DNA of 64,000 nt, taken from contig JAWMAR010000081.1 in NCBI GenBank assembly GCA_036785375.1, forward strand, positions 7,564,001 through 7,628,000, read 5' to 3'. Within the stretch, counting starts at the first letter, position 1. Each line of letters begins with the position of its first letter. This document shows, in pieces, positions 2,952 through 64,000 of the stretch. The notes under the pieces are model-generated. The model did not search any database and was not told where the DNA came from. It saw only the letters and a list, made by a program, of their open reading frames with translations. The position numbers and the translations under genes were made by a program. Source of the stretch: Leucoraja ocellata (Eukaryota).

Positions 2952-3163
2952 AGAGATCGACTCAAAGCTGGAGTAACTCAGCGGGACAGGCAGCCTCTCT
3001 GGAGAGAAGGGATGGGTGACGTTTTGTGTCGAGACTGAAGAAGGGTCTCGTCCAGAAACGTCACCACTTCCTTCTCTCCAGAGATGCTGCCTGTCCCACT
3101 GAGTTACTCCAGCTTTTTGTGTCTATCTTCTATTTAAACCAACATCTGCAGTTCCTTCTTACA
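2952..3163 (+). mobile_element. Penelope pLTR-derived hairpin micro-element
   Basis: About 60-bp inverted arms (gctggagtaactcagcgggacaggcagc... / ...gctgcctgtcccactgagttactccagc); hammerhead-like core at 3035-3062; near-TSD caccat(c/a)aacttc at 2939-2951 and 3164-3176. Confidence 0.8.
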
Positions 3164-3196
3164 CACCATAAACTTCTGTGTGAGTGGCAAATGTAT

Positions 3197-3514
3197 TTTG
3201 TTTAGCTTAGAGATACTGCGTGGAAGCAGGCCCTTCGGCCCACCAGATCCACGCCGACCAGCGATCCCCGCACGTTAACACTATCCTACACATATTAGGG
3301 GCAATTTCTACATTTACAGAGCTAATTTACCTATATACCTGTACGTCTTTGGAGTGTGGGAGGAAACCGAAGATCTCGGAGAAAACCCACACAGGTCACA
3401 GGGAGAATGTACAAACTCCATACAAACAGCACCCGTAGTCAAGATCGAACCCGGGTCTCCGTTGCTGCAAGCGCTTAAGGCAACAACTCTACCTGTGCGC
3501 CACCGTGCTGCCCC
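3197..3514 (-). mobile_element. HE1-like tRNA-derived V-SINE
   Basis: Minus strand: tRNA head (ggttcgatc B box), V-domain (ggagtttgtacattctccc...ggtttcctcccacactccaaagacg), CR1-type tail and (taaac)n. Confidence 0.85.
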
Positions 3515-3725
3515 AGTATTTGAATAATATATTAGATTTAAACCATTAAATGGAACAATATCAAGATTGCATTATAGCCATCTCAAGTACAAATGCTGAG
3601 AAAAGGATGACATCAATGGGGAAATCAGTATGTTTATATGATTTGATCGCTTTTTTTGAAAAATGAAATAAAGTTATTTTCTGAGGATCGGCAAATGAAT
3701 ATATACAAAGCTCTGAAAATGGCAG

Positions 3726-3978
3726 TTTAGTTTAGAGATGCAGTGTGCAAACAGGTTCTTTGGCTCACCAAGTCCATGCTGACCATCAACCACCCATTCA
3801 TACTAGTTCTATGTTATCCTACTTTTGCATCCAATCCCTCCAGACTAGGAGCCAATCTTTGGGATGTGGGAGGAAACCGGAGCACGCAGAAGAAATCCAC
3901 GCAGTTACAGAGAGAACATGCAAACTCCACACAGACAGCACCTGGGGTCAGGATTGAACCCGGGTCTCTGCCGCTGTA
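3726..3978 (-). mobile_element. HE1-like V-SINE
   Basis: Same V-domain and tail as 3197-3514. Confidence 0.8.
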
Positions 3979-4211
3979 ATGCTGTGATACTGCAGGCCTG
4001 GAGTGGAAAACAGTATTTTTTGACTATATATTGTTGAGGAGAGATTGGAGGAAATTATGATAATTTATATTGATGAGGAATAAAAGTCACTTTGCTATTT
4101 GAGTAAACATGTGCCCGCGTTTCGTAGGGGAGATCTAATGAGTTCCAAGGTGTTGAATATGGGGGCAGATTTCATGTGACCCCTCGGTGACAAATCTTCT
4201 CCCGAAAGGTA

Positions 4212-4560
4212 ATAGAAAATAGGTGCAGGAGTAGGCCATTTGGCCCTTCGAGCCAGCACTGCCAATCAATGTGACCATGGCTGATCATCCAAATTCAGAA
4301 CCCCGTTCCTGTTTTTTCCCTCATATCCCTTGATTCCGTTAGCCCTAAGAGCTAAATCTATCTCTCTTGAAAACATCCAGTGAATTGGCCTCCACTGCCT
4401 TCTGTGGCAGAGAATTCCACAGATTCACAATTCTCTGGGTGAAAACATTTTTCCCCATCCCTGGTTCTGGATTCTCCCAACATGGGGAACATTTTTCCTG
4501 TCCAATCCCTTAAGAATATTACATGTTTCTATAAGATATCCTCTCATCCTTCTATATTCC
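4212..4560 (-). mobile_element. CR1 3' fragment
   Basis: tagaaaataggtgcaggagtaggcc...gctgatcatcc...ctccactgccttctgtggcagagaattccac. Confidence 0.85.
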
Positions 4561-4566
4561 TTCAGA

Positions 4567-4594
4567 CTGAAGAAGGGTCTCGACCTGAAACGTC
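4567..4594 (+). ncRNA. Minimal type-I hammerhead ribozyme core in Penelope pLTR fragment (element about 4561-4690)
   Basis: CUGAAGA-A-GGGU(CUCG)ACCU-GAAAC-GUC; palindromic ACGU helix III. Confidence 0.6.
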
Positions 4595-4834
4595 ACCTAT
4601 TTCCTTCACTCCATAGATGCTGCCTCACCCGCTGAGTTTCTCCAGCATTTTTGTCTACCTTCGATTTTCCAGCATCTACAGTTCCTTCTCAAGCTTTTGT
4701 AACTAAGTTACTTATGAAAAGGCAAAGTAATGAAGACACATTTTAATGCTCTGTTTAGGCATTGATGTGAAGTGGGCCAAAGTGGAAATTGAAATTTCCA
4801 ATAATGAGAAGTTTTTTTCTTTCTTTCTTCCTAG

Positions 4835-4944: not shown

Positions 4945-5016
4945 GTGTCAGTTGCACTATAACTGAAATAGAATTCTATTTTGCCCCAGTCACAGTGTTG
5001 TTCATGTTTATATTTA

Positions 5017-5978: not shown

Positions 5979-6019
5979 TAATTCTCATTCTATTCTTACT
6001 CCACGTTTTCTATGAGCAG

Positions 6020-10864: not shown

Positions 10865-11132
10865 TAAATCATTAATGTGGTGTTGAAAGTGACCAGGAAT
10901 CTTTTTTTTTTCTTCTTTTCTTTGCCTGTTTAAATGTACCCATTCTCATGAGGAAATGTGTAAGAAGGCTGCTAGTGTTTATTTCAAGGGCTGGATTACT
11001 GTACTCCTGCTACTACTATGTTCTTAACCAATGTTTGGGGTTAAGGAGACCAACAAAGGTTTTGAAGGTTACACAGAAAAGCTGGAGAAACTCAGCGGGT
11101 GCAGCAGCATCTATGGAGCGAAGGAAATAGGC

Positions 11133-11160
11133 AACGTTTCGGGCCGAAACCCTTCTTCAG
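11133..11160 (-). ncRNA. Minimal hammerhead ribozyme core in Penelope 3' pLTR
   Basis: Minus strand CUGAAGA-A-GGGU(UUCG)GCCC-GAAAC-GUU. Confidence 0.6.
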
Positions 11161-11276
11161 ACTGATCGGGGATGGGGGTGGGTGGGGACAAGAAAGGGAA
11201 AAGGAGGAGTAGCCAGAAGGCTGGAGGGTGGGAGGAGACAGCAGGGGAGCTGAGGAAGGGGAGGAGACAGCAAGGA

Positions 11277-12635
11277 CTAACAGAATTGGGAGAATTCGAT
11301 GTTCATGCCCCGGGGGTGTAGAGTCCCCAAACGGAATATGAGGTGCTGTTCCTCCAGTTTCCGGTGCTGCTTGCTGTGGCCATGGAGGAGACCCAGGACA
11401 GAGAGGTCGGAGGCGGAGTGGGAGGGGGAGTTGAAGTGCTGAGCCACCGGGAGGTCAGCTTGGTTATTGCGGACCGAGCGGAGGTGTTCGGCGAAACGAT
11501 CGCCCAACCTCCGCTTGGTCTCACCGATATAGATCTGCTGGCATCTAGAGCAGCGGACGCAATAGATGAGGTTGGAAGAGATGCAGGTAAACCTCTGTCG
11601 CACCTGGAACGACTGCTTGGGTCCTTGAACGGAGTCGAGGGGGGAGGCAAAGGGACAAGTGTTGCATCTCCTGCGGCCGCAAGGGAAAGTGCCCGGGGAG
11701 GGGGTGGACCGAGAGGGAAGGGAAGAATTGACAAGGGAGTTATGGAGGGAGCGGTCTTTGCGGAAGGCAGATATGGGGGGAGATGGGAAGATGTGGCGAG
11801 TAGTGGGGTCACGTTGGAGGTGGCGAAACTGACGGAGGATTATTTTTTGTATGTGACGGCTGGTGGGGTGAAAGGTGAGGACTAGGGGGACTCGGCCCTT
11901 GTTGCGAGTGCGGGGATGGGGAGAGAGAGCAGTGTTGCGGGGTATGGAAGAGACCCTGGTGCGAGCCTCATTTATGGTGGAGGAGGGGAACCCCCGTTCC
12001 CTGAATAGTGAGGACATTTCAGATGTCCTGGTGTGGAACGCCTCATCCGTGGAGCAGATGCGGCGTAGACGGAGGAATTGGGAGTAGGGGATGGAGTCCT
12101 TACAGGAAGCAGGGTGGGAAGAAGTGTAGTCCAGATAGCCATGGGAGTCAGTGGGTTTATAGTGTATGTCGGTTAGAAGTCTATCACCTGCAATGGAGAT
12201 AGTGAGGTCAAGGAATGGTAGGGAAGTGTCGGAAATGGTCCAGGTGTATTTCAGTGCCGGATGGAAATTAGTGGTGAAGTGGATGAAGTCAGTCAGTTGT
12301 GTGCGGGTGCAGGAGGTGGCACCAAAGCAGTCGTCGATGTAGCGGAGGTAGAGGTTGGGGATGGGGCCCTGGTATGTATTGAACAAGGATTGCTCGACGT
12401 AACCTACAAATAGGCAGGCATAGCTGGGGCCCATGCGTGTGCCCATAGCTACGCCTTGTATTTGAAGGAAGTGGGAGGAGTCGAACGCGAAGTTATTGAG
12501 GGTAAGGACCAGCTCCGCTAGGCGGAGGAGAGTGTCAGTGGCTGGGTATGGGTTGCTTCTCTGGTCGAGGAAGAACCGGAGGGCTGTGAGACCATTGTGG
12601 TGGGGGATGGAGGTGTATAGTGATTGGACGTCCAT
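11277..12635 (-). CDS. Penelope-like reverse transcriptase + GIY-YIG endonuclease (N-terminally truncated, 452 aa open)
   Basis: RT motifs MDVQSLYTSIPH, QIQGVAMGTRMGPSYA and YLRYIDDCF; Cys linker CGRRRCNTC; NLIYCVRCSRC...YIGETKRRL...H...H...EEQHLIFRLGTLHPRGMN. Confidence 0.95.
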   Translation of the reverse strand: MDVQSLYTSIPHHNGLTALRFFLDQRSNPYPATDTLLRLAELVLTLNNFAFDSSHFLQIQGVAMGTRMGPSYACLFVGYVEQSLFNTYQGPIPNLYLRYIDDCFGATSCTRTQLTDFIHFTTNFHPALKYTWTISDTSLPFLDLTISIAGDRLLTDIHYKPTDSHGYLDYTSSHPASCKDSIPYSQFLRLRRICSTDEAFHTRTSEMSSLFRERGFPSSTINEARTRVSSIPRNTALSPHPRTRNKGRVPLVLTFHPTSRHIQKIILRQFRHLQRDPTTRHIFPSPPISAFRKDRSLHNSLVNSSLPSRSTPSPGTFPCGRRRCNTCPFASPLDSVQGPKQSFQVRQRFTCISSNLIYCVRCSRCQQIYIGETKRRLGDRFAEHLRSVRNNQADLPVAQHFNSPSHSASDLSVLGLLHGHSKQHRKLEEQHLIFRLGTLHPRGMNIEFSQFC

Positions 12636-12640
12636 GGTGA

Positions 12641-12839
12641 TTTTAAGCGGTGGATCTTCCGGCGGATAAAATATAATTGGGGTCCGTTGCAGGTCTGGGT
12701 AAGTGAGGCCTGAAGTTCAGGGATTTTAAGCAGTGGATCTTCCGGTGGATAATTTTAAGCGGTGGATCTTCCGGTGGATAATTTTAAGCGGTGGATCTTC
12801 CGGCGGATAATTTTAAGCGGTGGATCTTCCGGCGGATAA
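12641..12839. repeat. 29-bp repeat: one solo copy (12641-12669) plus four tandem copies (12724-12839)
   Basis: Unit ttttaagcggtggatcttccggcggataa with 0-2 substitutions. Confidence 0.95.
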
Positions 12840-13370
12840 TTTTTTTTCGGCGGATAAAGGTTTTGATTCCTTCTTGTAACTGCTGTTAGAAGATATCTAG
12901 TTGTGACATTGGGATATTGGAAGTTAAACAACCCTGTGTTGGTTAAGAACATAGTAGTAGCAGGAGTACAGTAATCCAGCCCTTGAAGCATCCTGTACCA
13001 ATAATCAAGATGCTGAACTTTTACCTCCAGTGCCTTTTTCCAGCACTCTTTCCATATTCCTCTATTCTCTGTAAAGCCCGGAAATTAAGTTCAGTGCTAC
13101 TTACCAGCACTCCCCTCCATACCCCCGTATCTCCTCACTACCCCCCCCCCCCCCCCCCCCCCTCCCCCTCCTCCGCCGATGCCCTGCAGCTGTCACAGGC
13201 CTCAAGCATCAGATTGCAGCAACCAGTGCACAGATCGGTGTTGGTGGACAGTGCTGCAGCACAAGCGAATCAGTGAGGAAATAGTAAAGATAAAACGTTG
13301 CCTTGGTTGAGATTCTTTAATTCGAGTATGATTCCTGAACTTTCAGCATGATGTACTTGTTTTGCATCAG

Positions 13371-13653: not shown

Positions 13654-13704
13654 TTGCAGGAGAGATGACAAACGGTTAATGTAAAGGACAACCTATATTT
13701 ACTT

Positions 13705-13840
13705 TGAGACACGAAGCTGGAGTAACTGAGCGAGACAGGTAGCATCTCTGGAGATGGAATGGGTGACGTTTTGGGTCGAGATCCTTCTCTTTTTGTGTAT
13801 ATCTTTGGTTTAAACCAGCATCTGCAGTTCCTTCCTACTA
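13705..13840. mobile_element. Internally deleted Penelope pLTR micro-element
   Basis: Left arm gctggagtaactgagcgagacagg...gacgttttgggtcgag fused to the ...aaaccagcatctgcagttcc tail. Confidence 0.75.
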
Positions 13841-17245: not shown

Positions 17246-18479
17246 TTGATTCAATTTTGGTCATAAACTGACACATTGGCATTGGAGCCATAAGCCACCT
17301 GCTGCACGCTTTTAAGTCTTCAAAAGCCGTGAATGGTTAACATTAAGCTATAAATATGTTCTTAAACTAGAAAGCAATAACCTTGTAATATTGTCACTCT
17401 CAGAAAATCCAACAAACGATGGCTGGCATTATTCTATGTTGGCAATTCCAAATTATAATTCAGACAATAGTAAACTGAACCACTCAATTGTCATTTCCCA
17501 TAAATAAGGAAACCACAATCCTTAATTCCTCAAAATGAGTATATTCAACTGCCTTTAAATACAGTATGCATTTCTCCTTGAGATGCAATTACAGTTTACC
17601 TAGACATATTAAAAAACTAGCTTCAGGTCCATTTCTTCCCATGAGTGTTGTGGTCTTCGTGGGTTATATAAATTCTTCCTGCAGCATTAAAATGATATTC
17701 AGACAAGCATCCGTTCCATCTTTTGCCAAAAAGGAAAGGAAAAGATCAAATATAATTATTTCATAGTGCAACAGCCTAGGCAACTGTCAAGAGATTTTTT
17801 CTTTCATTCTGTTGGCCTTGAATACTGCCTCCGGCATTAACTAGTTACAAATGACAACTACCATTTGGCTTTGAATGACATTCAGATTGAAACGAAACAG
17901 ACTTTAGAAAAGAGAGGGTGACAGAAGAAGTGCTTAGTCTGAAGGAAGCTGTCGTACACTCCGAGATGGCAAGGTTTTGTGATTTTTGTGAGTAACATAA
18001 AGCATACGAGATGTTAAATGCTAAGTTTCTGGAGTCAAAGACAATGGTGTTTCAAAATTGTTATGACTTTCTCCTTTGTGTTTTTGCCACGGCGGGGAAA
18101 TGTGAGCTGTATTTCATTACAGGGATAAGGCCTGGTCAGGGCAAAGCAAAGGAAAGTTCATAACTTAGTTCTTGTAACTTACAGATGGCAAGGATCTCCA
18201 GCACTCGCTTTTGACAATGAAGATAAAAATTGACAGATATCAGGAAACCACTTCATAAATGTATCCCACAGTACAGCAAATCCGAAGAGAATAAAATGTA
18301 ATAACAAAGCAATTTGGTACAATACATAAAATATTTATTTTTTACTTGTTTGTCTTCTTTATTTAGTTTAGAGGTACAGGATGGAAACAGGCCCTTTGGC
18401 CCACCGAGTCCACAACGACCATTGATTACACATTCATACACAGAAACCCGAAGTAATTCAGCGGACAGGCAGCATCTAT

Positions 18480-19185
18480 GGGTAGCAATGTTACAAAATT
18501 TTGAGATTTAAAAAATCGTTTGCAATTTATTCCATCAGATAAAGCATAAAAATAAGTTTAATTTGACACCTAATTCACTTTCATATCTTCAGTATTAAAA
18601 AGGTTATGGCCATTTTCATACTGAAATTAGCATCTTGTTCCCTATTGCTTTTCCATTGACTTAACACAAAAGCAGTGATCGAGGACAGTCAAAAGCCCAT
18701 AACTTTCTTAAAAATTAAGAGAACTGAAATAAATTTTCAATTATAGATTGAAGCATTCTGAAACAAATATGAAACAATCTTACTTGGATGACCTAAAATT
18801 AAAGCATATAATTAGTTAGTTACCTAATTGTAGCTAATTACAGAATTCAATTGCTAGATCTAAACATCTATCCATTTCTTAAGACAAGATTAACATTTTA
18901 AAATAGTCTAAGTGTCCAAATAACATTCACACAAGAATTCACAATATAACATGATTTTTAAAACTCATTATCATGAATTTATAGGCCAAGGAAGGAATTT
19001 AATGTTTAATTCCTGTAAAATAATGGCCATTTAAATCATCTTGCGATTGAGTTTTTGTGGAACGCGATCAATTGGAACCTTGCGGTTGCAGTGAATTTGA
19101 ACTCCATATCGGCAGGAAAAACACTGCTGGTTCGTATGGGGCCATAATCACATTTTCGCCAAGGAAATTTTGATTAAAGCCATCC
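18480..19185. mobile_element. AT-rich insertion with imperfect terminal inverted repeats (putative non-autonomous DNA transposon)
   Basis: Interrupts a pLTR arm (ggcagcatctatg|...|atgggag); ends gggtagc...caaaattt versus aaattttg...gccatcc. Confidence 0.4.
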
Positions 19186-20539: not shown

Positions 20540-21910
20540 TTTGTTGCCCATATTTTCAACTGATCTCTATCCTGCTGTATCCTTGAATTTTGATCTATGC
20601 CCGTTACATCCAGGTGATACTGAAAGGTTCTGGGTAACTCAACGGGTCAGGCAGCATCTCTGGTGAAAAAGGATGGGTGATGTTTTGGGTCGGGACCATT
20701 CAGGTAAATCCCATACTCTGGGTAAGAGATTGTGCATTTACTCAATCTATGCTTCTCACGATTTTGTACACCTCTATAAGTTCATCCCTCATCTTCCTGC
20801 GCTCCAAGGGATAAAGTCATAGCCTGCTGAACCTCTCCCTACAGATCAGGCCCTTGAGTCCTGGTAACATCCTCATAAATCTTCTCCGCACCCTTTCCAG
20901 CGTTAACAGCATCTTTCCTATAACATGGTGAACAGAACTTAACACAATACTCTAAATGTGGCCTCACCAATGTCTTAAATAACTGTAACATGATCTCCCA
21001 ACTTCTATACGCAATACTCCGAGTTGGGTTCAGTTTATTGTCACGTGTACCGAGGTACATGGGCGTAAATCGTGGGGGGGATCCCGGCTCGCTTGCCCCA
21101 GGTCTGGTTGTAGGGCCCAGTTCGCCTGCGTGCCCCGGGACTGGCTGTAGCGCTGTAAGTCGGCTCGCAAGGCCCACACTCTAAAGACGTGTAGGTTTGT
21201 AGGTTAAGTGCTTCGGTAAATTGTAAATTGCCCCTAGTGTGTTGGATGGTGCTAGATTGTCGGTGAGCATGGACACGGTGGGCCAAAGGACTTGCAGTTC
21301 CCAGGTCGCCTGTATGCCCCGGGACTGGCTGCAGTTCCCAGTTCGCAAAAACTAATTGAAAACAAGTACGCCTGCTGGCCAGATGATTTTGGGTTACGGG
21401 CCGGGTTCGGCATGTGGGCCGTAGGTTGCCGACCCCTGTCCTAGATGTTAGGCCTCATTATATCCCCCTACGTTTTAAAAGCAATTTCTGCCCTTGGGAA
21501 AGGTTTTGTTGCATGCTAACCCGTCATGATTACAATCAAGCCATTTACAGTGTATAGACCCATGATAAGGGAATAACGTTTAGTGCAAGGTAATGCCAGG
21601 AAATTCTGATCAAAGATAGTCCGAGGGTCACCAGTGAGACAGATATGTAGTAGTTCAGGACTACTGATGAAGGTCAATGTGCCAAAAGCCTTTTTGACAA
21701 CCCAGTGACTCCACTTTCCAGGAACTATGTACTTGCACTCCCTTTGCCCTACAACACCCCCCATAGCCCCTCCATTCACTGTGTCATGTACATCCTGTCT
21801 ATGTTAGTCTCCCAAAACGCAATTCTCACAGTTCTCTGTATTTAATTCCATTAACCATTCCTCAGCCCACCTGCCCGAGAGATCAAGATCCTGCTGCATT
21901 TTATCTTTGC
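20540..21910 (-). mobile_element. Nested cluster: CR1 fragments with inserted pLTR arm, hAT-like MITE (about 21058-21438) and Rex1 tail
   Basis: LFKTLVRPHLEYCVKF frame; hAT-type end gggccgtaggttgccgacccctg; internal repeat cccag.tcgcctg..tgccccgggactggctg. Confidence 0.65.
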
Positions 21911-27440: not shown

Positions 27441-28011
27441 CACTGTGAATTCATAACCTCTCCATATTATATAACATTTTAAGGCAGATTATGAAAGTAG
27501 GGAGAGAGGAAGATGTGAGGTTTTAGAAGGAGCTCCAAGTACCATGGGTGGTGACAAAAGGATGTTTAGTGATAATGCTTTGGGAATGCCAGACAGATTT
27601 TGTCCTCTTTCTATGTTGTTGTCTTGAAGCTGTCTCAAGTGTTGGGGAAACAAAAGGCAGCAGATAGAACAAAAGAACACAATGCTGGAGAAACCCAGGC
27701 ATCATTTGTGGAGGGAAATGGACAAATGCCGTTTCAGGTTAGGACTGTTGTACCTCACAGTGTTAGGGGTTTGTTTTTGCTTGCAACTCGGATCTCAGCA
27801 TAACTTAAAGTAAATTATTTAACAAGACACTTATTTTTTCATGAGACGCTAGCACCCCTGTAAATAATTGGTATTATTATAAGGCATCCATTGTTTCAAA
27901 ATTCAGTGGCTTCAAGTTATCAACATTTGATGACTGAAAACAGACTAAGGACAGTTGTGCAAAAAACAGATTGCTGGAGGAACTCAGTCAGTCCGGCAGC
28001 ATCTGTGGAAT

Positions 28012-28281
28012 GAAAAAAAAAAAAATGAAATGATTCAATTTATTGTCATTGTCAGTGTACAGTACAGAGACAACGAAATGCATTTTTAGCATCTCCCTTG
28101 AAAGGGAGACACAGGGCGTCGCGGTGTGCCCGCGCCTGCCGCCGTACATTCCATTACAGGCAAAGGTGGGTGAAGTGTCTTGCCCAAGGACACAACGACA
28201 GTATGCACTCCAAGCGGGATTTGAACCGGCTACCTTCCGGTCACCAGCCGAACTCTTAGCCCATTGTGCTATCTGTCGCCC
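28012..28281 (-). mobile_element. tRNA-derived CORE-SINE with Rex1-like tail, nested in a pLTR arm
   Basis: Minus: A box tagcacaatgg, B box ggttcaaatcc, CORE gtgtccttgggcaagacacttcaccc, tail aatgacaataaa; CpGs retained. Confidence 0.8.
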
Positions 28282-29429
28282 TGAGAGAGAGATAATGTTT
28301 TGGTTGGGACCCTTCTTCATATTGGTGGGAAGAGAGAAGGCAGGTGGGAAAAAGAGGTGAGAGGAAGGGATACTATATTTATGTTGTGAAGGGTGTAGCT
28401 GGTGGCTGGGAGATCTTTAACTAGCTATTCTGCTCTGTTGAGGAAGAAAACATTATGATATGTATCCAAAAGACAGATACTAACCTTCAGTTTAAATAAA
28501 ACAAATAGAATTTCTGGACACCCACTGCACTCCAAGAAGTCAATGTATAAATTGCTTTGAGATGTAACATGCCCCTAGTGCGTAAGTAGTGGATGCGAAA
28601 GTGGGATAAGAGAACTGGTGTGATCGGTGTGGATTCCGTGGGCCGAAGGGCTTGTTTCAATGCTGCAGCTCTAAACTAAACTAAAGATCAAAGAACACTC
28701 AGATAAACACTTATCATTGCTGCATCTTTATTATTAGCTACTTAGCCACGAAGGTGATGTGCAGAATGTACAGTATGGGTGGCATGCCCATGGCTTTGCA
28801 AGATATCAAACAGAATGACACTGGGCAATAACAAATGGAGATAGATAGCAGCGAGGGAAGTAGCAGGACAGGGCTTGCAAAGGAGATTATGGCCATTGGA
28901 GTCTGAATAAGGGTCTCGACACGAATTGTTGCAGCATGTGGTGGCAGCTATCTTGGATAAATGCCTGTATTTATGTACTTGCCATTCTCGAAAACACTAC
29001 TGGAGCATCAACAACACCTTGCCCTTTGTGTCATCTCTTCACATCAAATCTAACTTTGGATCAATCTGATTCACTGGCTTGGCACCAGTCAGTGACACAG
29101 GGACATAGGCAGCAATGATAATGGTCACCCAGGCAAGTCGGGAAAAGTGAAAGAAAAGCAACAATTGCTTGAATGAACCCCAATGGTTTCACCGATATCT
29201 ATGATGAAAGCTCACTTAAAGTACCTTGTGTAATCAATTCTTTCATCCCAGCGTAATTACAATGACCTTACCATTCCCTTGGGAGCTGCACCCACATCAA
29301 CCTTACAAGCTCCAGTATTTGGGATGAAAGTAGTGAACGGCTTTTCACTGTTCATCGTGTCCTTTTCAAACCTGCCAAATATAAAATCATTGTTCTGTTA
29401 GTGTGCCTTGTGGCTAATTTTTCTTTGGG

Positions 29430-30385: not shown

Positions 30386-30399
30386 TACACGCAAATATA

Positions 30400-33335: not shown

Positions 33336-33954
33336 TGTTGGAAAAATAAGGTCTTCAGAACAATTACTACAATTTCTGCAGAAAGATTTGGATCTGAAAC
33401 ATTGCCTATCCATATTCTCTAGAGATTCTGCTTGACCTGCTTGAGTTACTCCAGCACTTTGTCGCATTTTTTGGTAAACCAGCATCTGTAGTTCGTTGTT
33501 ACTACACTTTTCTCAATTGTTACTCAGGTAGTAGTTCTGCTGCCATTTATATCACCAAAAGTTAGGCAAAGAACAGTTATCTCAAATAATCAGAAGAAAT
33601 GAAGCCAAACTATAGAAGGACAAACCATAGAAAAATACCAACCAAATACTTTTTTGGTGGTTAGTGTGAATCCCTTGTTTCTGTGCTGTATGTCTATATG
33701 AATTACACAGACCTGTATAGAAACTACATCTCAGAAATAGGCCATTCACCTCAACCAGTCCACATTACTTCCACGTAACAGCAGCATAAATCCCATGAGC
33801 CATTGATATTGACTGAATGTACATTACAGAAGGGGGAATATCTTTTATCCATGGGTGACAGTGTATCAGCTATCCAGTTTACACTTGGCTTCATCTCTGT
33901 TTTGAGCTCAGCAGGATGCATGGAATGGAATGGAATGCATCTAGTGAATATTGA

Positions 33955-35427: not shown

Positions 35428-36359
35428 GAAGCATCTAGCTGCTGTTTCACCATCACCCATTCCAGGACACAGATGAAGACTAATTTCAGACATAAAGAGA
35501 ACGAAAGTTAACTAGGAGAACCCAATCTTAAGTTTGTAATATTCCTTGTCAAATAATATTTGTGCTTGTGTGAGATAATGTTTGTTCTGTCAGCCATATG
35601 CATATATGCGAGGTTGATAGGGCTATCAGAAGGTGGTGCAGCAGCCTATTTATCTGTTCTATGTTTGGAGATCAAACCACTGTTTGGCTAAGTTTACCCA
35701 CCTGAGGTCTGACTGTGTAAAAGGCCTTATCATGGCTGACCATGAAAACCTCACCTATTTGTTAAAGGCACAAAAGTTAAACAATTCTTTTCCTCTCAGG
35801 ATTAAATTCGGGAGCACCGATATTTCCCTGTGACATTTATAGAAGTATTCAAACAAACAATTCAGTTCCAAATAACCCCAAAGTTGGAATCAGTCATGCC
35901 TGACTCAAAGCACAATATTATCAACTAGCTGTATGATAACCAGGTATAATAATGGATGCAGGTGTGCACCAAACTAATAGGTTCAGTAACTGAAGGCAAG
36001 ATTGAAAGAGATTGCAATAGTATCTCAGGTTTGTGCTCCAGCTTCGCACACTAGCCACATGCATATTTCCACATTTTCACAGATTGTCTAATATTTGTTA
36101 AGACAATGCATCATAGAATCAGGAGTATTGGAAGTCAAATGCAAAGCCTTCCCTTTTGTTTATTGCAGCCAAGGATCCTTGACTTTATGCAGACGTGCAA
36201 AGTGAATTTCAGATGTGAAATTGAATGTCGCCTTCACTGAATCTGCAAATATGCATTCATTTGATGAAATCACATTTTTTTAAACAATAAGTAATATGGT
36301 GATCAACATTGAATTTAAAGGGACTTCCCTTCTCTGTGGTTCAAGGTGATATCTTATTG

Positions 36360-36458
36360 CAAAGATGGACACAAAATGCTGGAGTAACTCAGCGGGACGG
36401 GCAACATCTCTGGAGAGAAGGAAAGGGTGACGTTTTGGGTTGAGTCCCTTCTTCGGAC
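36360..36458 (-). mobile_element. Single-arm Penelope pLTR micro-element
   Basis: Exact 13-bp TSD tgatatcttattg at 36347-36359 and 36459-36471. Confidence 0.88.
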
Positions 36459-36771
36459 TGATATCTTATTGTGTCTGAAGTATATTGCCTTTCTTAACCT
36501 GTCTAACACAGTTCAAATGAATCAAACTTGAAACATTTTGTCTTTTGGACTAAGTGGTGCAGGAATGGTGGTGAAGGAACCTGCGTTTGTTTAATATCTG
36601 GGGTATGGGGTAGTTGCAAACAATAATGGCTGATGGCTTTAAGTTCAGTAAACAAGCAGTTGGATACTTCAGTCCACTTTCAGTGCAACAGTTGAACCCA
36701 AAGAGGCACATACTTAAATGTTAACTGGCACTGTGGCAGTATTAGTCCAAATGACATTTGTGTCTTCATTT

Positions 36772-37824: not shown

Positions 37825-39002
37825 TATGGGAAATCATAGGACATTGGACTGCATTCAGAGACGCAAAAGCAGAAGTAAAGCTTATAAGTCTGGGGCCTCA
37901 ATGCTGTCATCCAATAGCAGAAACTAGGACTAATGCGCCGTGATTCACCTTGATCCCTCAAAAAGGTACTTCTGGGATGGTAGCGCACTTTATTTGGCTT
38001 ATCAGGTCAGAGATCATGTTCAAATTGTAAAGCAGCCAGTAAGGATACCAAAATATAAGATGAGATGCAATTGGAAGAGACAACTGAAAAGCTACTAGGA
38101 CGTTTTGAACAAAACGGGACTCTCAACAGAATAACCATCGGTGATATTTAATGCAAACACGAACAAAATGTTAGAAATAGAAAGAAAAACTAATAATGTA
38201 CGTTGCTTTTTAATTATTAGGTGAAAACTCAGCAAATGACACCTCATCTTGGACGGGAGTTCACAGGCAAATTGGCTCAACCGTGAGTTCAACGTTTTTA
38301 GATTAAGATGGAACGTTGCCAGTGGAAGGGCTTTACATGACACAAGGGCTTTCCATGATGTGATGATGTTATGGGTGGTGGTGTAATACCTGTAGCCCAG
38401 AAATAGTGGAAGTAAACTTTGTATCTGGCTCTGCCCCATCCTAGACTTAGCCTGCTGTCAAATCCTTCAAAAGCATAAACGTTTATTTTGTTGTCCCATA
38501 GGCTATAAAAATCAATAAAAGTTATAAGATTTTTTAAAAATAGTAAATGGAATTTAAAGCACTTAAAACACTTAAATCATTTGAGACGATCAAAAATGTA
38601 TAAACTAATCTCAAATAATTTAAAAAAAATGTGAATTACCTAATACTTTTTATTCCTTGCAATAAGATCTTCTCCATTCCAATAACTGGATATACTTTGC
38701 CAGCATCTCTAATGTCACTAGTTGTATTGTCACCTCTCAGTTGTTTTCTCCATCCATACTTTAATTCTTGTCCAATTACTATTTTATTGTCATTTGCGGT
38801 TCCATCTCTTTATTCATCACATTTTCTGCAATTTATCATCCCACTGACTTTCTCTCTTTCTCCGACTTCATTTCCAATTCCTGGTTATTCCTTGTCCCTG
38901 CACTTGCTTAAAACCTTTACATGGCTGACTTTTTCCTTTGAACATAAACTTATAGAACACCACAGCACATGAGGAAGCCATTCCAACTCCGATGTCATAG
39001 CA

Positions 39003-39225
39003 AAAATAGACTCAAAGTGCTGGCGTAACTCAGCGGGTCAGGCAGCATCTCTGGAGAACATGGATAGGCTATGTTCCAGGTTCCAGACCTGGCCAGTCTG
39101 ATGAAAGATCACCACCCAAAACCTTGTCTTTCCATGTTCTCCAGAGATGCTGCCTGACCCATTGAGATACTCCAGCAGTTTGTGTCTATTTTGGTATCTG
39201 CAGTTCCATGTGGCTTTGTTGTAAC
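39003..39225 (+). mobile_element. Penelope pLTR-derived hairpin micro-element (older)
   Basis: Inverted arms gggtcaggcagcatctctggagaacatgga / tccatgttctccagagatgctgcctgaccc; CTGATGA at 39098-39104. Confidence 0.8.
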
Positions 39226-45184: not shown

Positions 45185-46506
45185 GTCAGTAAGAGCTACA
45201 AGGAGAGGTTGGACAGACTTGGATTGTTTTCTCTGGAATGCCAGAGAATGAGACGAGACCTGATAGAAATAAATACAATTATGAGAGACATAGATAGGAT
45301 AGACAGTCAGAACCTTTTTATCAGGATGGAAATATGAAATATTGGAGGGCATAGTTTTAAGGTGAGAGGAGCAAAGTTTAAAGGAGATGAGCAGGGCACA
45401 TATTTTACACAGAGGGTGGTAAGTGCCTGGTATGCATTGGCAGGAGTGATGGTGGAAACAGATATGATGGTGGCATTTAAGAGACTGCCAGACAGGCAAG
45501 TGGATATGCAAGAAATTAGGGATATGGATTATGTGCAGGCATAGACCAGAAAAGAGTTGGTCTTTGCATCATGTTCGGCATAGACATTTTGGGCTAAAGG
45601 GCCTATTCCTATCCTGTACTGTTCCATTCCTTCTCTTCAGAGATGCTACCTGTCCCGCTGAGTTACTCCAACATTTTGTGTCTATCTGTACTGTTCTACA
45701 TTCTATATAGACTCCTTTCTATCACCTTCTCAATTCAAGTAGGCACACTCTTGGTTTAAGCCTCAGAACAATGGCATGAACATTTTTAACTTGTAGAACC
45801 GCTGAACCACACAGTGAAAATGACTTTGCTCAAGAAGCGCACGTGTGGTGATTTGTCATTTGCAGCAAATATTGGCAGTGCTTGCATAACCTTACAGTTA
45901 CCAGGGACGGCTTTCCTGTTGATGTGGGTGTGGGCGCTCAGTATTCCTTTGTTCACAGTTTACTCATAGCGTGTTTACTCAGCTGGGTTTTTGTGCCCTG
46001 AACTCACCACTTAAATAACTTCCAAGAATCAAGAGGCAAATACAGTTGAGCAGGTATAAAATAAAAGTAAATAACTTCGCAACCAGTGGGGATTGAAACA
46101 ATTAACACCTCTTTTATACATGGAATATCGCCACATCAAGTTTCTTCAACCCACCATTTAAAATGAACGTTATTTAAGTTGAGTCATACTAATATTGACA
46201 TTTATGAATGATGCAATAAATGATCTGTGTATTATTTAAAAGATAAACTCTAAGACCTGAATGCACTTTATTTGCACACTATTTGGGAAGGGCCATTGGT
46301 GCCTTTTCATACATTTTCTAAAGCATTTTCTTGATTGTTCATTGCAGGAGGGATTTTGTTTTGCCTCTTGAACTTTACACTGGTGTTGATCATACTATGC
46401 CAAATGGGCTGGAGTTACTCATTGTCCCTTTGCTTTCAGACTTAGCCTGGTGGTGGCTAAATAAAATTCATCTGCCTCATGCTGACTTTAATTGTTCTTC
46501 ATTGAA

Positions 46507-48789: not shown

Positions 48790-48905
48790 GAAGATGGGTC
48801 TCCACCCATTCCTTCTCTCCTGAGATGCTGCTTGTCCCACTGAGTTACTCCAGCATTTTGTGTCGATCTTCGATTTTTACCAGCTTTTGCAGTTCCTTCC
48901 TACAC
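48790..48905 (+). mobile_element. Penelope pLTR micro-element
   Basis: Exact 14-bp TSD aagcttgttttgaa at 48776-48789 and 48906-48919. Confidence 0.85.
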
Positions 48906-49223
48906 AAGCTTGTTTTGAAAGCTTGCGGTGAGGTTCAAAAATAAATTGCAACTCAATTACCTAGACTCTTCAACATATTATTCTTCCCTTTCCAACATCA
49001 TGTTTTCAATTGTGTCATGTACACCATCTAACTTTTAATGAGATAGCACACCAGGTTCCATCATTGTCTTCTCCTTGCTTAGAATTTAATGGGCTCTAAA
49101 GCATGAAAACAAGCAAATTGATGCGTATCAGTGTTTATGGTGCGCACAATCATCATGCCAGCCTTTCTCTTAAACACCAGCTCCTCATCCTTCAATTTAC
49201 TTCTCCCTCCCCTGATATCATAT

Positions 49224-49345
49224 TTGCAGATGCTGGAAAATCGTAGGTAGACAAAAATGCTGGAGAAACTCAGCAGGTGAGGTAGCATCTATGGAGTGAA
49301 GGAAATGGGCAACGTTTCGGGTCGAGACCCTTCGGTCAACACCCG
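49224..49345 (-). mobile_element. Penelope pLTR micro-element
   Basis: gcagatgctggaaaatcg.aggtagacaaaaatgctggagaaactcagc...aacgtttcgggtcgagacccttc. Confidence 0.8.
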
Positions 49346-50762
49346 AAGAAAGGTGTTAAATGCGTCATAGAGTCATAGAGTGATATAGTGTGGAAACAGG
49401 CCCTTCGGCCCAACTTGCCCACACCGGCTAACATGTCCTAGTTACACTAGTCCCACGTGCCTTGGATAGGTAGTAGGTAGTAGTACATTACATTACTTAG
49501 ATAGGTAGATAGGTAGTAGTACATTACAAGCAAAATAAGAGATAAAGGTTTAATTTGATATGTTGAAAAAATATGTGAATTAATTAACAAGAGAAGGAAT
49601 CTTGCCAAGAGAAGAAATCTTCCAACAATCTGATTTACATTGTGAAAGATTTATCCCCATAATTTTGTTGGGTTCTTGAAGGTGCTAATTCAGAGCTTTT
49701 GTATTTCTAATTGGTTTGTTACCATGTTATTAATGCTGAAACTCTGCCACTAACCTCATTTCCCTCCGGGGAGGAATAAAGTTCTATTGTATCGTATATT
49801 TATTTATGTTGAACAAATAGAGATCTCATGAGAAAAAGAGACTAATTAATCTACCTTGCATATCTCCATCTTAAACGAGCTCTTCCCAAACTGCTTTCGT
49901 GATTAATTCTGTTAGACAGGTTTAAGCAATTTTATTGCATTTAAAGACTGGATTATCTGAACAACATTAAAATTCCAGTGTTTGCTTCTCCATATCAATG
50001 TCAGAAATGTAGACATCTACTAGTGGAACAGCCCTGGAACAAGAAAATTGAATTATCTTGTGGATTCATAAGTCTTAATCATTGATTCATCTCTTCCCTA
50101 AACTGTAGCAATATTGCCAAGTGCTCAATGACGGAATGCAATGGAAATGATTCAAGGCTGTCTCACACTCAAGCTGGCTTCTTTTTTTAATGCAACCTCA
50201 TCCGTTCCATTGCCCATTGACTCCAGAGAGTGGTAGACACTGCCTGGTCTGTTTTTAAGTAAACTGATCTGTTTTGTAGTAAATGCCTACTATGTTCTGT
50301 GTGCTGAAGCAAAGCAAGAATTTCATTGTCCTATCAGGGACACATGACAATAAACTCACTTGAAGTTGAACTTGGTCCACCACAGGTACTAATCTCCCCA
50401 GCATCAAAAAGATCTAGAGGAGGCGTTGCCCCAAAAAACAGTTGGACAATACCCAAGGAAACATCCTTTCTTTATATTGTCATATCTTTTCAAATTATCG
50501 GAGGTCACTTTAAAACCAAATCTCTGACTAAATAATGCAATACATTAGTCGAAACAAAGAACTGCAGATGCTGGTTGCTGGATGCAATGCATTATCTTTT
50601 TTTCAATAAAGAAGAATGCAGGTTATTCATTTTTTGAGAACATAACTGACAGATCTTCTTCTGAAATGTCCACATTCATAAACAACAAAGGCAGGCTGAT
50701 TTCATTGCCTCGTCCAGGGAGGTTGAGAGATTTTTGTTTCAATCAATGGCAAAAAGAAAACT

Positions 50763-57935: not shown

Positions 57936-59210
57936 GCTATGTGGTGTCCTATGTTATATCATTGTGTTTCTCTCTGGCTACAGTTATGGATGGAAACAGA
58001 GAAGTGCACCAATGGAAGAAAGGTTTACCCATTCTGTATCTCTCACAAGAGAAACCATTTTGAATACTAATGGCAGAATGGTTAGATGTTCTCCAGAGTG
58101 CATGAATAAACATTGTCTCCATTTGCATGAAATAAATAACCGAGCAATAAAATAATGTTTGGGGTCGAATGATTTTTAAACTAAATGTAGCATAATATTT
58201 GTTGTTGTTTCCACTCTGATCTCTGCTCTGACTGACATCAGATAAGAGGATGGTGGTTAAAAACAGAAATCTTTCAAAATAAATGTTTGATTAGATCATC
58301 AGCTTTGCTGCTTAGATATAGATAAGTATAGCTTATTTATCTTGGGACAGATGGTTGAGGCTTCCAGCATGTCCCAGCCTGTAGCATTGACAGTTTGTGT
58401 TCAGCTAAGAAACTTGCTTTGCTTTAGATGCATGTTGTTAAAGTAGCCTTCTGATGATGCCAATAGAGGAAAAATATTATAAATCTGAAGGAACTGAGTG
58501 AACCCTGCACCATTCCTAATGAGTTTACTGACATCCATTCAAACATTAACCAGACCTTCTGTGGTATTCATCAAAATAATATCAATCCTGACCAAATTGC
58601 ACGGAATATTCTTCCCTTATATAATCTGGAATGATCCTGACTATATCTGGTGCACTGCACCCACATTGCCAAGTTTCTTTAGGCACAGTAAGGTAGAATT
58701 CCCTTTGTATTGCTTAAGTAGAGAGATTATACTGAATTATATATTTTAAGGTAACAAGGAACAGAAACTTTCTGTAGCAACTTTAGCATGTTGAAATATC
58801 TCACGCGCCAAATACAAACTACTGGTCAGGCAGCATCTGTGGAGGGAAATGGACAGATGGTAGAAGGCCAGCAGAGTTTGTACAAGAGCCGGAGAGGTAT
58901 TAGAGATGGGAGAAAGGGAAAGAGTCAGGGAGGCGCGGACTCCTTGCCAAGGAAATAAGCATGAAGGTGGAGGCACTGGAAAAAGTGTTCAACATCATGA
59001 CGGGCTTGGCATTAATTGAGATGAGGTGCAGGGATACAGTGGTAATGTCTCTGCTGAGAATAGACTGCTCAACATCAGGAAGGAGTAGGTCATGGAGGAT
59101 GGTGAAGACTTGGCAGAGGTTGGGGTGGGGGCAGAAATGAGATTGGAGGAGGGAAGTAATGTGGGGGTGGGGGGGGGGGGGGGGGGCGTAGGGAGGACTT
59201 AGGAGAGGTA

Positions 59211-59732: not shown

Positions 59733-60475
59733 GTACTCTGCTGAGTGGAGGGGAGCTCAGAGGAGAGAGGAGAGCGAGGGCTGGTGCTATCTCAACAGGC
59801 TTCATGAGAACATCGCAAATCAAAATTTATCACGATCCTTTAAAAAATGCTTTAAGAAAGGGGTTTGGCAAAGATATATGTTTTCATAAATCTAAAAGGA
59901 AAAGGGAAAAACAGTGGAGAGGTTTATGGCGTTAAAGTTAAAGGCTGAGCCACATGAAGGCATGGCTGACAACTAGGTTTGAAAATTATGTTTTATCATT
60001 GTTTTTTTTAGCTCTGGCTTGTTCCTGATGCATTTCCTGTTTCTATCTGTTTCTTTATCAGCTCATGTTTCACTTATATTTCACTTCTGCGGCTCCACAC
60101 CAATCTGGAGACAGTTTCTTTTCCAAGGGGATTCTATGTAAACATTATTTACTAAAACAGGCTATCCACCAAAGATCTTGCCTGGAGACTACTCACAGGA
60201 GTAATTAAGTTTTTAGTTTCTTGACCGATTGCAATAAAATATTCAGCAGTAAAATACTTTAAAAAAGGGACATTGTTTAAATGGCTAATAAAGTATGATT
60301 ATGATTAAGATTATTAAACAAAATTTTAATATATGTTATACATAAAATGTTCGCCAGATTCTTGGTAATTTATGAAGTTCATCGGCCAAAATAAATGAGT
60401 AGCATTTTGTGTGGTGATGAATGAAGTGACTTCTGTTGGAGTTATTGCATTGTTTTTTAAATGAATCGGTGCTAA

Positions 60476-61665
60476 TGTAAATAGCTGGTTCGAAGCTTCC
60501 CCCAGTCTAGTTTCAGTCAATTAGATACTGAGTCAAGCACTTGCGCAACTAAACTTTATTTTGGAAAACACAAATAACAGTTCCCCACTACTATACGAAC
60601 CACCGCGGGTTCGATCCTTGTATCTGCTTGGCCAAAACCTTCTAGCCTCGTGCAAGCAGAGACACTCCAAAAGGTCACACAGTCCCAAGCGTTCTTCCAG
60701 AAGATCGACATCGGACCTCATGGGAGGTACCTTTTATAGGTCCCTGAACCTTGAGGGGCCGAACCATATGGGGGTGGTCTCTATACAGTACAATAACAGA
60801 TATCGATTAACACAGTACATGATAGACATTTCCCTAACCCAATAAAACAGTGACTAATACAATGTACCTGACAAAGTTTCTAGATGCAAGTTAACAAAGA
60901 TGAATTATGCAACATGTGCCTGGAAATTCAAGAAACCCAGACAAGGCTCAACACTTAACCCAATCAACATCTAGCAAAGTAAAGCTTTGCAGCATTATTT
61001 ACAATGTGTATATCTGGTTTGCATTCACCCAATCCATTTCATGCAATTTACACCTTAGGAATTGTAGGAATCTGCAGATGTCCCATTTTTCCCCCCAACT
61101 CTTATCTGGGCCACAGACAAACTGTACAATTCAGCAGCTTGTCCCAGTTCTGCAAAAGGCACATTAAATTGACCCAATGGCCTAGCAACACAAAAGCCTT
61201 TACTCAATTTTAGTGTCCTGGCAGCTCCAATTTGGCCAGAAGTAACATTCCTTCCTTTTATCATATATGATAAACCATCATTTATGATAACCAAATAATC
61301 AGATAATCAGATAACCAGATATACATATGTGTGACTATTACATTATCCATCTTTTAACAACAAGATGATGATATTTCCTCTCAGAATCTTATCAAGCTTC
61401 CCGAGTTTTCGTGGGCATAGCTTTGCAATTTCCGTCTGATGAGTCTTCATCTCCCGAGTTTTCGTGGGCGCAAATTCCCTCCATCTGTGTTGTTGCCCAT
61501 TCTTCCATCCCTTTCCATAGTCGAACCTATAACCTATAATTCCTGAAAATCTTGGGACAATTAAATTAAAAAAAGGCACATTTAAATTGACCCAATGGCC
61601 TAGAAGCACAGAAGCCTTTACTCAATATTAGTCTCCTGGCAGCTCCAATTTGGCCAGAATTAACA
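60476..61665 (-). mobile_element. Solo LTR (ERV1/Gypsy-type, 4-bp TSD)
   Basis: TG...CA termini; CTAA TSD at 60472-60475 and 61666-61669; minus-strand TATAAAA (60732-60738) then AATAAA (60555-60560) in U3-R-U5 order. Confidence 0.8.
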
Positions 61666-62774
61666 CTAATATGCACCTCCATTGCCACCCCTTCCTGTAT
61701 AAAGAAATATTTATTTACATTCCCCACGCATTACTCATGTTAACAATTAGCGCTCTAAAATGCATTTGTGTGTCCTCTCATACTGCAATGCTCAGCTGCA
61801 AAAAGTTTGAGTGTCAATGTCACTGTTGATTTAACTACAAGAGAGCAAAATGGAAGTGAGATGGATGTTTAGAGAGAGAATTAAATGAATCAGGGTGAGT
61901 ATTCAGTGAACATATTACAGCTGTCTTTCTTAATCAGTTTTGATATGTTGATTTAAATTCAAGGTTGCTCTAAGGTTTGTTTCCCTTGGTTGGGTGGTCA
62001 ATAATTAAAAGATGGTATAAGGGAATGGAAAGAAAGATTGGATGGGAATTGTGAAAAGCTTTGTTTAACCAAAGTGGTAAAGGTCTGCATTAACAGGGTC
62101 TCAGTACATTGAAAGAGTATCCAGATGAACCCATCATGGAATATACGTTACATGGTGTGTATGGTGATTCCGATTTAGGAAATGCCGAAATAATGCTTCT
62201 TTATCGGGTATGGATGTGATTGGCTTTGATAGCCCATTCAATCTGTAACTTCTTATGATTCTATGAATGTTTTGCTCTACAGGGGAATAGGATATGATTT
62301 TTATTCCAGTTATGAGATGGTAGATTCATTTTGATCGAGTTGGCATTGAGAGAGATGTTCCATTTGTGCTGCCAGGAATAGACAGCAACTGTTCAAGGTG
62401 TCATGACAACTGTCCAGTGGATGTTGGGTCCCTTCCCTCACTTTTACTGATAAAATACCTGCCATTCATCTTCTATCCATTCCACAGACTCAGACGACAC
62501 CTTTAGATGTAACTTTTATAGGCTGCATCAAGAGAGAAATGTATTCCAGTCAATGGGCACTCAGCGTTTGTGGGGCGGTATTCTTGCAAGTCCGCACTGT
62601 ACGTAATTGCTTCCTGAGAAATCTCTATTGGGCTGCCCATGGATTCATGTTGAGGGCATTTCCAGTTGACGGATAAATCTGGGGGTAGTGAGCAATGCAA
62701 TCTATACCGACATAATCCAATCACTTTATAACTGTAGCTGATTCACACTCTCTACCACTATAGAGCATTCATAG

Positions 62775-63035
62775 TTTAGTTTTGTTTGGATACAGCACGG
62801 AAACAGGCCACTCGGCCCAGCTTGTCCGCTCCAACCTGTGATCCCCACGCATTAACACTATCCTACACACACTAGGGATAATAGGAGACCAAAGATCTCA
62901 GAGAAAACCCACGCGGTCATGGGGAGAATGTACAAATTCCATACAGAGGGCACTCGTAGTCAGGATCAAACCAAGGTCTCTGCGGTGCAAGCTCTGTAAG
63001 GCAGCAACTCTACCGCTACGCCATCGTGCCGCCGC
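62775..63035 (-). mobile_element. HE1-like V-SINE
   Basis: Tail, partial V-domain and tRNA head. Confidence 0.82.
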
Positions 63036-64000
63036 CATAGGTTCATAGAACAAAACAGAAGGGGCTATTCAGCGCATTGTATCCAAGCCGGGAAGGGAAT
63101 AGTTATATCGGTGTTTCGCACAGTCCTGATCATAGTCCACGGCTTTTAGATTGCAGGGTGATTCATTCAGCTTTGGGGTCATTTTGAATTCACTGTACCT
63201 GTGCTACGAAACAAAAAAGATGGGAACGTTTTTAAGGTTGTATAAACATAATTTAATTTATTTGCCACCTGAATTCAAACATTGCTTTGAATACCTCATT
63301 CATTTACTTGATATTCACAGAGATGTCACCTTATCTTGCATGGGTGTGAAGGACCATCTGTCTTCTGTTTCCCAAATTTCTATCACTCTGGAACAATATT
63401 TTCTAAAAAAGATTAAGTAGATCAACTCAATTCCAAAGTGGCGCCTATCCATGTCCTCCAGAGATGCGGCTTGTCCTGTTGTGTTACTCCAGTACTTTGT
63501 GTTTTATTCAAGATTTCAGTGCCTGCATTTCCTTATGTGTCCTGATGTTCATAGTCTTGATAGTGACTTGTAAAATGAACATGCAGCTTAAACAAGGAAT
63601 AGCATGTCAGTCACTTCATGACCAAAGTACAGATTAAAAACTGACCCTGCAACTATATGAGATTACACCAGAGCAAAAATATCACTGCTAAACACATCAT
63701 CTGCTCGATGCACAACCGTTGAAGATAACTGATCCTGGTTTTGAGTGGTCTTCCAGTTATAGCGCAAGTAGTTTCCATTTTCCAAACAAACTGAAATCTT
63801 CCGCTATTATCATGTTTAGCCCACAGCTGTTATGTATCCAGGAGAAAGTTGCTTCACCACAATTTGCACATCTTTTGGGAATTTATTTTAATGTCACGAA
63901 AGAAGAAAAATGAAGCATTTGTAAAGGCCATGTCAAAATGGGAAATATCCAAGGCTTAATGTAATAAACAGACAATTACATAACTGAGCTCAGTAATTTC

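Follow-up and report, generated by a model that had tools for sequence, protein, structure and literature searches.

A 64,000-nucleotide stretch of the Leucoraja ocellata genome (assembly GCA_036785375.1, contig JAWMAR010000081.1, positions 7,564,001 to 7,628,000 of the forward strand; hereafter the window) contains numerous short insertions, called stubs here, that derive from the terminal repeat (pLTR) of a Penelope-like element (PLE). These stubs are probably dead-on-arrival by-products of an autonomous Neptune-like Penelope element that possesses a reverse transcriptase (RT) and a GIY-YIG domain and is very prolific in this cartilaginous-fish genome. An earlier note, made from the letters alone, had proposed a distinct mobile family, free of open reading frames (ORFs) and centred on a hammerhead ribozyme. 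The origin of the inserts in the pLTR is borne out. The separate ribozyme-centred family is not, since the stubs form one series with ORF-linked copies and their hammerhead cores decay like the rest of the pLTR.

Stubs and their parent element

The repeats were searched with blastn, using four window copies, and with an nhmmer model built from 11 window arms, for which the best E-value in five shuffled windows and one reversed window was 0.097; the census covers the window together with read and contig pile-ups. Positions are counted (+n/-n) from C3, the first base of the hammerhead core, located in the coding copy at window position 11160 on the minus strand. All 14 insert coordinates quoted previously were recovered by the nhmmer model, and the estimate of about 20 insertions was accurate: 20 loci comprising 24 arms were counted, about one per 3.2 kb, one split copy (27966-28012 and 28287-28320) being merged and the weak matches 26042 and 52312 set aside. 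The proposed stand-alone size of 100-220 bp stood in part. Eighteen loci are short (34-215 bp), but some of them are well below 100 bp; the remaining two loci are coding.

The parent is represented by the coding copy, whose frame (11277-12716) holds 479 stop-free codons. Its match to RVT_1 (E 5e-4) falls below the cut-off, the domain being truncated. A protein search with this frame returned 1123 homologues, the best named ones coming from sharks and rays (59-71% identity); homologues cover 94% of the frame, and RVT_1 and GIY-YIG were both found in the three full-length relatives scanned. A PLE-type RT followed by a C-terminal GIY-YIG in one ORF is the arrangement that defines an endonuclease-bearing (EN+) PLE. 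A CX2-5CxxC linker before GIY-YIG and a CCHH motif were read by eye in the translation, and such a linker is described as a Neptune trait shared with Nematis (PMC8557442). The linker points to a Neptune-like clade (Neptune or Nematis type), and the clades described from vertebrates are Neptune and Poseidon. The coding copy is devoid of its 5′ part, and contig depth falls beyond about 12640, where its Penelope homology starts. A second coding remnant (34724-35079) lies within a 1-kb inverted locus. No full-length or partial-tandem pLTR-ORF-pLTR copy, the unit expected of an EN+ PLE, occurs in the window.

Two observations concern the surroundings of the coding copy. Between its truncation point and the 5′ target-site duplication (TSD), a filler (12640-12855) contains 4.2 repeats of a 29-bp unit, with a further copy at the junction; these repeats look like repeated template jumps during insertion, and contig depth suggests that the filler derives from another repeat. 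A perfect 49-bp inverted duplication (10983-11031 and 12939-12987) flanks the insertion, and its assignment to a family of miniature inverted-repeat transposable elements was ruled out by single-copy contig depth.

The continuity between stubs and coding copies is best seen at 34409-35428. This locus is inverted and tailed like the stubs, yet holds GIY-YIG coding sequence (tblastn E 2e-26). The stubs therefore represent the shortest members of one series and not an architecture of their own, and the description of the family as pLTR-only and ORF-free is not confirmed. Furthermore, stub and ORF-linked copies interleave in the subfamily tree, where two subfamilies include an ORF-linked copy. Motif scans for the pLTR in metagenome contigs and in viral contigs gave no locus.

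TSDs, which the earlier note had reported for three inserts, were found at 7 of the 23 entries tested. Four are exact, of 11-14 bp (11064, which is the coding copy, 36362, 45624 and 48790), and three, of 12-13 bp, have one mismatch (2952, 33375 and 50548). Among 299 random intervals, an exact duplication of at least 11 bp was never obtained, and one of at least 12 bp with one mismatch was obtained once. The TSDs are 54-83% AT; from these 11-14-bp AT-rich duplications, insertion by the RT/GIY-YIG protein of Penelope was judged to be correctly proposed. As for abundance, contig depth in the pLTR bin reaches 27-28 million, versus a median of 1.6 million over spacer and ORF, in both contig sets (a ratio of 16-17 to the median and of 6-8 to the highest spacer or ORF bin), flank depth being 17-68; such depth is no copy number and the counts are partial. 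Together with the density of loci, it suggests 10^5-10^6 pLTR copies, a rough figure drawn from one window and from depth.

Decay of the hammerhead motif

The inserts do contain the known minimal type-I hammerhead motif. It fits the published minimal hammerhead consensus, with a stem II of 4 bp and, as had been suspected, a short helix I (2 bp). Among the nine arms that span it, the core (CUGANGA and GAAA..UH, with an extra base before stem II) is kept in five, and core and stem II in three. Core, stem II and helix I are all intact in a single spanning arm, that of the coding copy, and in none of the 18 short loci, two of which have an intact core. The statement that stem II keeps its pairing across variants is not confirmed, all four pairs being found in only four of the nine spanning arms; the change quoted in its favour, U-A to U-G, is one-sided. 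Two-sided stem II changes are seen in one subfamily, and the covariation score of stem II and helix I over 13 arms was reached by 75 of 500 shuffles (77.9% of cells paired, versus 14-46% when slid). The core (117/130, 90%) is hardly better conserved than the downstream sequence (958/1103, 87%; p=0.40), which largely corresponds to the outcome that the earlier note had regarded as fatal to its proposal; this tally omits the weak or partial arms 26042, 28320, 52312 and 50576. Of 15 arms, 9 retain the essential G12, which is a CpG site. Probably, the motif is kept in source elements and lost in inserted copies.

Folding with ViennaRNA, whose models ignore tertiary contacts and proteins, gave a stem II probability of at most 0.02 in all eight copies folded from -3 to +95; pairing of GAAGG with the downstream CCUUC is often the cause. 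In the coding copy (11120-11156), GAAGG at the edge of core and stem II and the downstream CCUUC give a fold that excludes the hammerhead, and contig joints recur at both places. Rfam returned no match in the window at the gathering score; sub-threshold matches in 11040-11300 at E<=10 (best HOTTIP_3, 16.9 versus 50 bits) were attributed to chance. No pile of RNA ends at the predicted cut was seen in the 21,763 bulk and 61,503 single-cell reads mapped to the coding copy, which represent about 5% and about 1% of the runs and come from libraries weak for detecting cleavage. Of the bulk reads, 87% continue into unrelated sequence, which is what copies embedded in host transcripts should give. Ribozyme function in the stubs is thus unsupported. 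One single-cell run (X22) has a strand bias, which is left uninterpreted.

Copy ends and the origin of the stubs

The 3′ ends of the copies fall mainly near +92-95 (tailless) or +128-131 (tailed). The extension of sense arms noticed previously is real, at about 35 nt; in all four inverted loci this tail is present only on the sense arm, and it forms the principal loose end, at 11070, in RNA reads. Penelope elements are known to carry a tail of 30-40 bp at one end (PMC3846280, PMC8557442).

The 5′ ends are unevenly distributed, 14 of the 24 arms starting in -7..+10. The rate there is 14 ends per 190 nt at risk (7.4%), versus 5 per 685 (0.7%) in +11..+45 (p=2e-6), and 3 per 2242 (0.13%) upstream of -8; with non-inverted copies alone the comparison becomes 9/111 versus 5/440 (p=4e-4). 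The starts were placed by hand and the -7..+10 interval was picked after looking. Among the six loose ends listed for each contig set, those at 11162-11163 (-2/-3) amount to 371 and 319 contigs in one set (X2) and 344 in the other (X1), with heterogeneous, AT-rich flanks (agreement 0.33). The TSD-bounded 5′ ends at -3 and -1 fall on a TCAGT motif, and the spacer located upstream is 71-82% pyrimidine with C runs in the three long arms.

From these ends, a route to the stubs may be proposed. The transcript would start at the A of TCAGT (-3, window 11163), in a context that matches the metazoan initiator consensus. Priming at the pLTR carried by the 5′ end of the RNA would run off after 95-135 nt and produce a pLTR-only stub, and priming at the downstream pLTR would yield the rarer ORF-bearing copies. 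The mechanism is modelled on PAc of Anolis, the protein of which nicks AT-rich DNA on both strands and extends both. With PAc, reverse transcription begins at two internal sites of the RNA that lie close together, and the stretch between these sites is the tail; the length of the product is set by the 5′ end of the RNA. Hammerhead cleavage is dispensable for insertion and itself needs protein (PMC11167929). That the 5′ hot spot marks the 5′ end of the transcript, the stubs being run-off products of internally primed reverse transcription, would have somewhat less than an even chance of being right. Any role of the hammerhead would lie in the source transcript, where it probably requires help from a protein.

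Head-to-head inversions were found at four loci, three short ones and 34409-35428, with a different junction at each. The earlier note had described several hairpins with the core at their centre. However, among the three short inverted loci the core is intact only in 2952: the fold-back at 39003 has G12>A, and 13705 is without CUGA, its arms overlapping by only about 12 nt. Fold-back arms are 77-86% alike and no closer to each other than each is to the family majority; the 86% observed at 2952 is as expected from independent decay. The 2952 hairpin (-134 kcal/mol, z -14) buries the core. To account for such loci, both nicked strands would be extended, one from each start site, and the two cDNAs would be joined head to head by microhomology, for which the TCAG-N-CTGA palindrome or GAAGG/CCTTC are candidates. 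The chances of this origin by two-strand extension and microhomology joining appear evenly balanced. As a separate observation, the insert 2952-3165 puts a double-stranded hairpin of 80 bp some 45 nt downstream of the donor site of a GART exon, making it a candidate for ADAR editing or an effect on splicing.

Several points weigh against the by-product origin or the route proposed for it. Within the window, no ORF-linked copy belongs to the third or the fourth subfamily. The step in contig depth is overstated, since the pLTRs of other subfamilies still map whereas their spacers and ORFs are below 80% identity. Non-CpG core positions are slightly better kept than the downstream sequence (108/115, 94%, versus 930/1065, 87%; p=0.048). 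The mechanism is taken from PAc, an element of the Poseidon clade. Among the RNA read starts listed, none pile up near 11163, in libraries that are poor for 5′ ends. Finally, transcription of Drosophila Penelope starts 46 nt upstream of an intron, 75 nt long, that reaches to helix I (PMC2377424, PMC4209133), and by analogy the AG preceding the core may possibly be a splice acceptor. Against such an acceptor, no RNA-supported splice joint to 11161-11163 was present among the best 15 of 479 joints, and the DNA flanks there are heterogeneous.

A real possibility, although short of an even chance, is that, the origin being the same, reverse transcription from the 3′ pLTR usually aborts at the pyrimidine/C-rich spacer or at the GAAGG/CCUUC hairpin, so that the stubs would be ordinary 5′-truncated copies. 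The spacer is pyrimidine-rich and has C runs, several copies are predicted to fold into a hairpin over +5..+40, and the published reading is one of 5′ truncation and solo motifs (PMC4209133, PMC8557442). However, ends cluster at the edge of the spacer instead of spreading into it, their rate drops upstream of -8, the TSD-bounded ones at -3 and -1 lie on TCAGT, and contig depth over the spacer is not above that over the ORF.

The stubs might also constitute a self-propagating non-autonomous family, resembling short interspersed elements (SINEs) or retrozymes, with source copies of its own mobilised in trans. We consider this improbable. It would agree with the roughly 6-17-fold excess of pLTR over ORF sequence, with the two subfamilies without an ORF-linked copy in the window, and with the recurrent contig joints near 11152 and 11120, whose depth (290-1060) is well above single copy but whose type is not shown; non-autonomous PLE derivatives do exist (PMC8557442; bioRxiv 2026.07.22.740005). 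Nevertheless, the stubs have neither a shared or foreign 5′ head nor a fixed length, they form no tandem array, the junction differs at each inverted locus, and they interleave with ORF-linked copies in the tree. In addition, PAc RNA needs sequence 3′ of the priming sites (PMC11167929), which the stubs do not have.

More doubtful still is a minor class of stubs beginning at the cut (+28), the templates of which would have been made by hammerhead cleavage in vivo. Stub 45624 starts at +30, as fixed by its TSD, 58848 at about +27 and 63433 possibly at +28. These 2-3 arms out of 24 are too few to claim cleavage. Most arms retain the scissile site, their starts being upstream of the core. Among the loose ends listed (6373 others are not shown) there was no peak at 11132, nor were any RNA ends found there, and PAc likewise has no RNA ends at its cut (PMC11167929).

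Lastly, at 1-10 kb the window belongs to a host gene, GART, on the plus strand, with GARS_C and AIRS exons, and copies 3035 and 4567 are, as had been noticed, in sense orientation within its introns. That stubs are working dimeric ribozymes in host RNA, these two copies cutting GART pre-mRNA for instance, is barely credible: although both have intact core letters and the self-complementary ACGU, and minimal hammerheads have a low activity as dimers in vitro (PMC4209133), A faces A in both at pair 1.1-2.1 adjoining the cut, 3035 is locked in its hairpin with only two of the four stem II pairs, the copies are separated by 1.5 kb, co-folding of the 3035 and 4567 fragments gave no hammerhead, and reads mapped to the coding copy have no pile of ends at the cut.

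The by-product reading may be carried further. Taken as a whole, the stubs would be a fossil record of Penelope replication, made of several hundred thousand insertions, in which 5′ ends map a transcript start at the edge of the hammerhead, the two 3′ ends map two priming sites and head-to-head pairs record two-strand extension. This composite picture is tentative, and rather unlikely to be correct in full. A transcript start at the edge of the hammerhead would explain the 2-bp helix I.

Loci of the window and related systems

Table 1. Penelope-derived features of the window (window coordinates; a dot marks inverted loci)
Coordinates	Strand	Feature	Details
11277..12716	-	5′-truncated Penelope-like ORF	RT from motif A, thumb, CxxxxCxxC linker, GIY-YIG; homology begins near 12641
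11161..11276	-	Pyrimidine-rich spacer (82% C/T), stop codon to hammerhead	ends TCAGT
11064..11165	-	pLTR of coding copy, no tail	C3 at 11160; predicted cut between 11133 and 11132
11055..12866	-	Entire coding insertion	11-bp TSDs 11055-11065 and 12856-12866
2952..3165	.	Fold-back stub in GART intron	tailless antisense arm; sense arm with core and tail; 13-bp TSD, 1 mismatch
4560..4692	+	Tailed solo stub, coding-copy subfamily	pair 1.1-2.1 broken; intact core and stem II
13703..13840	.	Inverted stub	antisense +4..+89 joined to sense +78..+130 (tail); core not intact
18439..18482	-	Short internal pLTR fragment	nhmmer E 5e-5
20630..20702	-	Stub	start ~+4
27676..27745	-	Diverged stub	start ~+10
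27966..28320	-	Probably a single stub, split by later ~270-bp insertion	start +1; pieces 28287-28320 and 27966-28012
28898..28932	+	Weak hammerhead-only remnant	broken core; blastn E 0.002, nhmmer E 0.096
31354..31419	+	Stub	start ~+23
33375..33506	+	Tailed solo stub, third subfamily	stem II AGAU/AUCU; broken core; 12-bp TSD, 1 mismatch
34409..35428	.	Long inverted copy	antisense arm 34409-35080, GIY-YIG fragment, tailless
about 35090-35428	.	Sense arm of long inverted copy	spacer, hammerhead, tail
36362..36461	-	Tailless solo stub	start ~-3; exact 13-bp TSD; core broken (U4>C, G12>A)
38998..39213	.	Fold-back stub, third subfamily (CUGAUGA)	G12>A; sense arm tailed
45624..45688	+	Stub	start +30, just beyond predicted cut; exact 11-bp TSD
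48790..48908	+	Tailed stub	12-bp deletion in hammerhead; exact 14-bp TSD
49222..49337	-	Stub with partial tail, coding-copy subfamily	
50548..50581	-	Tail-only insertion, 34 bp	13-bp TSDs, 1 mismatch
58822..58862	-	Short stub	start ~+27
63433..63536	+	Tailed diverged stub, third subfamily	

Other repeats accompany these loci. The stub at 4560..4692 sits inside a CR1-like fragment within the GART intron. Fragments corresponding to the 3′ part of CR1-like long interspersed elements were recognised by eye at 19174-19899, 42191-42673, 46492-47523 and 7686-8060; the three scanned gave no Pfam match. The insertion that splits a pLTR stub (28013-28286, about 270 bp) is SINE-like, with an A-rich end. 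Within GART, a GC-rich intron segment (1500-2170) has overlapping long frames on both strands, and a motif scan for later exons of the gene, beyond 10.2 kb, gave no match.

The motif described here is like the minimal hammerheads of metazoan PLEs (Cervera and de la Pena 2014, PMC4209133) in its CUGANGA-H, G-C-closed stem II, GAAA-CG-UH and palindromic 15.2-16.2, in its position in the pLTR downstream of pyrimidine-rich sequence, and in its occurrence as mostly scattered single motifs with some opposite-strand pairs (100-700 bp apart in that work). In the same work, thousands of scattered single motifs were considered "probably related to truncated PLEs", beside opposite-strand pairs. A stem II of 4 bp and a helix I of 2 bp are at the short end of the published table, 2 bp being found also in D. 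virilis, Culex and Oikopleura. The density in the window appears far above the 4,000-9,000 motifs per genome reported there, the two measures being different. No shark or skate name occurs in the supplementary files of that paper that were searched (file 1 was outside the search).

Canonical C-terminal EN+ PLEs of the Neptune clade (PMC8557442, PMC3846280) share with the present element the order of RT, linker and GIY-YIG, 5′ truncation, an inverted 5′ copy, a 30-40-bp tail on one end, TSDs near 10 bp (8-10 bp in the published elements), palindromic inversion junctions and solo pLTRs. In contrast to them, pLTR-only products dominate here and 5′ ends pile at the edge of the hammerhead. Likeness to Anolis PAc (Frangieh et al. 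2024, PMC11167929) comprises two 3′ ends separated by the tail, 85-125 nt downstream of stem II, AT-rich targets and no RNA-seq ends at the hammerhead cut; PAc, however, belongs to another clade and its ORF starts at stem II, whereas no ORF start is present here in the window. Metazoan non-LTR retrozymes (PMC7229834; bioRxiv 2026.07.22.740005) are similarly short, non-coding, equipped with a type-I hammerhead and related to pLTRs. Nevertheless, they form head-to-tail tandems, typically with canonical active hammerheads and circular RNAs, whereas the copies studied here are scattered, either singly or head-to-head, and their minimal motifs have decayed. The unit is covered by none of the 27 Tandem Repeats Finder rows, and no RNA-supported back-joint was present among the best 15 of 479 joints, from poly(A)/oligo-dT libraries only. 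A literature search, with Repbase, Dfam and most subscription papers outside its reach, found neither this motif in cartilaginous fish nor a link between solo-pLTR ends and a start site.

Scattered minimal hammerheads from truncated Penelope elements have been known since 2014, and the stubs carry little weight as a new ribozyme family. Their interest lies in scale and mechanism, namely a very large pLTR load, a description of which for cartilaginous fish was not found in the literature searched. If real, the class of stubs starting at +28 would preserve the first sign that a minimal PLE hammerhead had cut in vivo. More generally, the sharp 5′ boundary offers an inexpensive route to how Penelope elements prime reverse transcription and to whether their hammerhead cuts in vivo.

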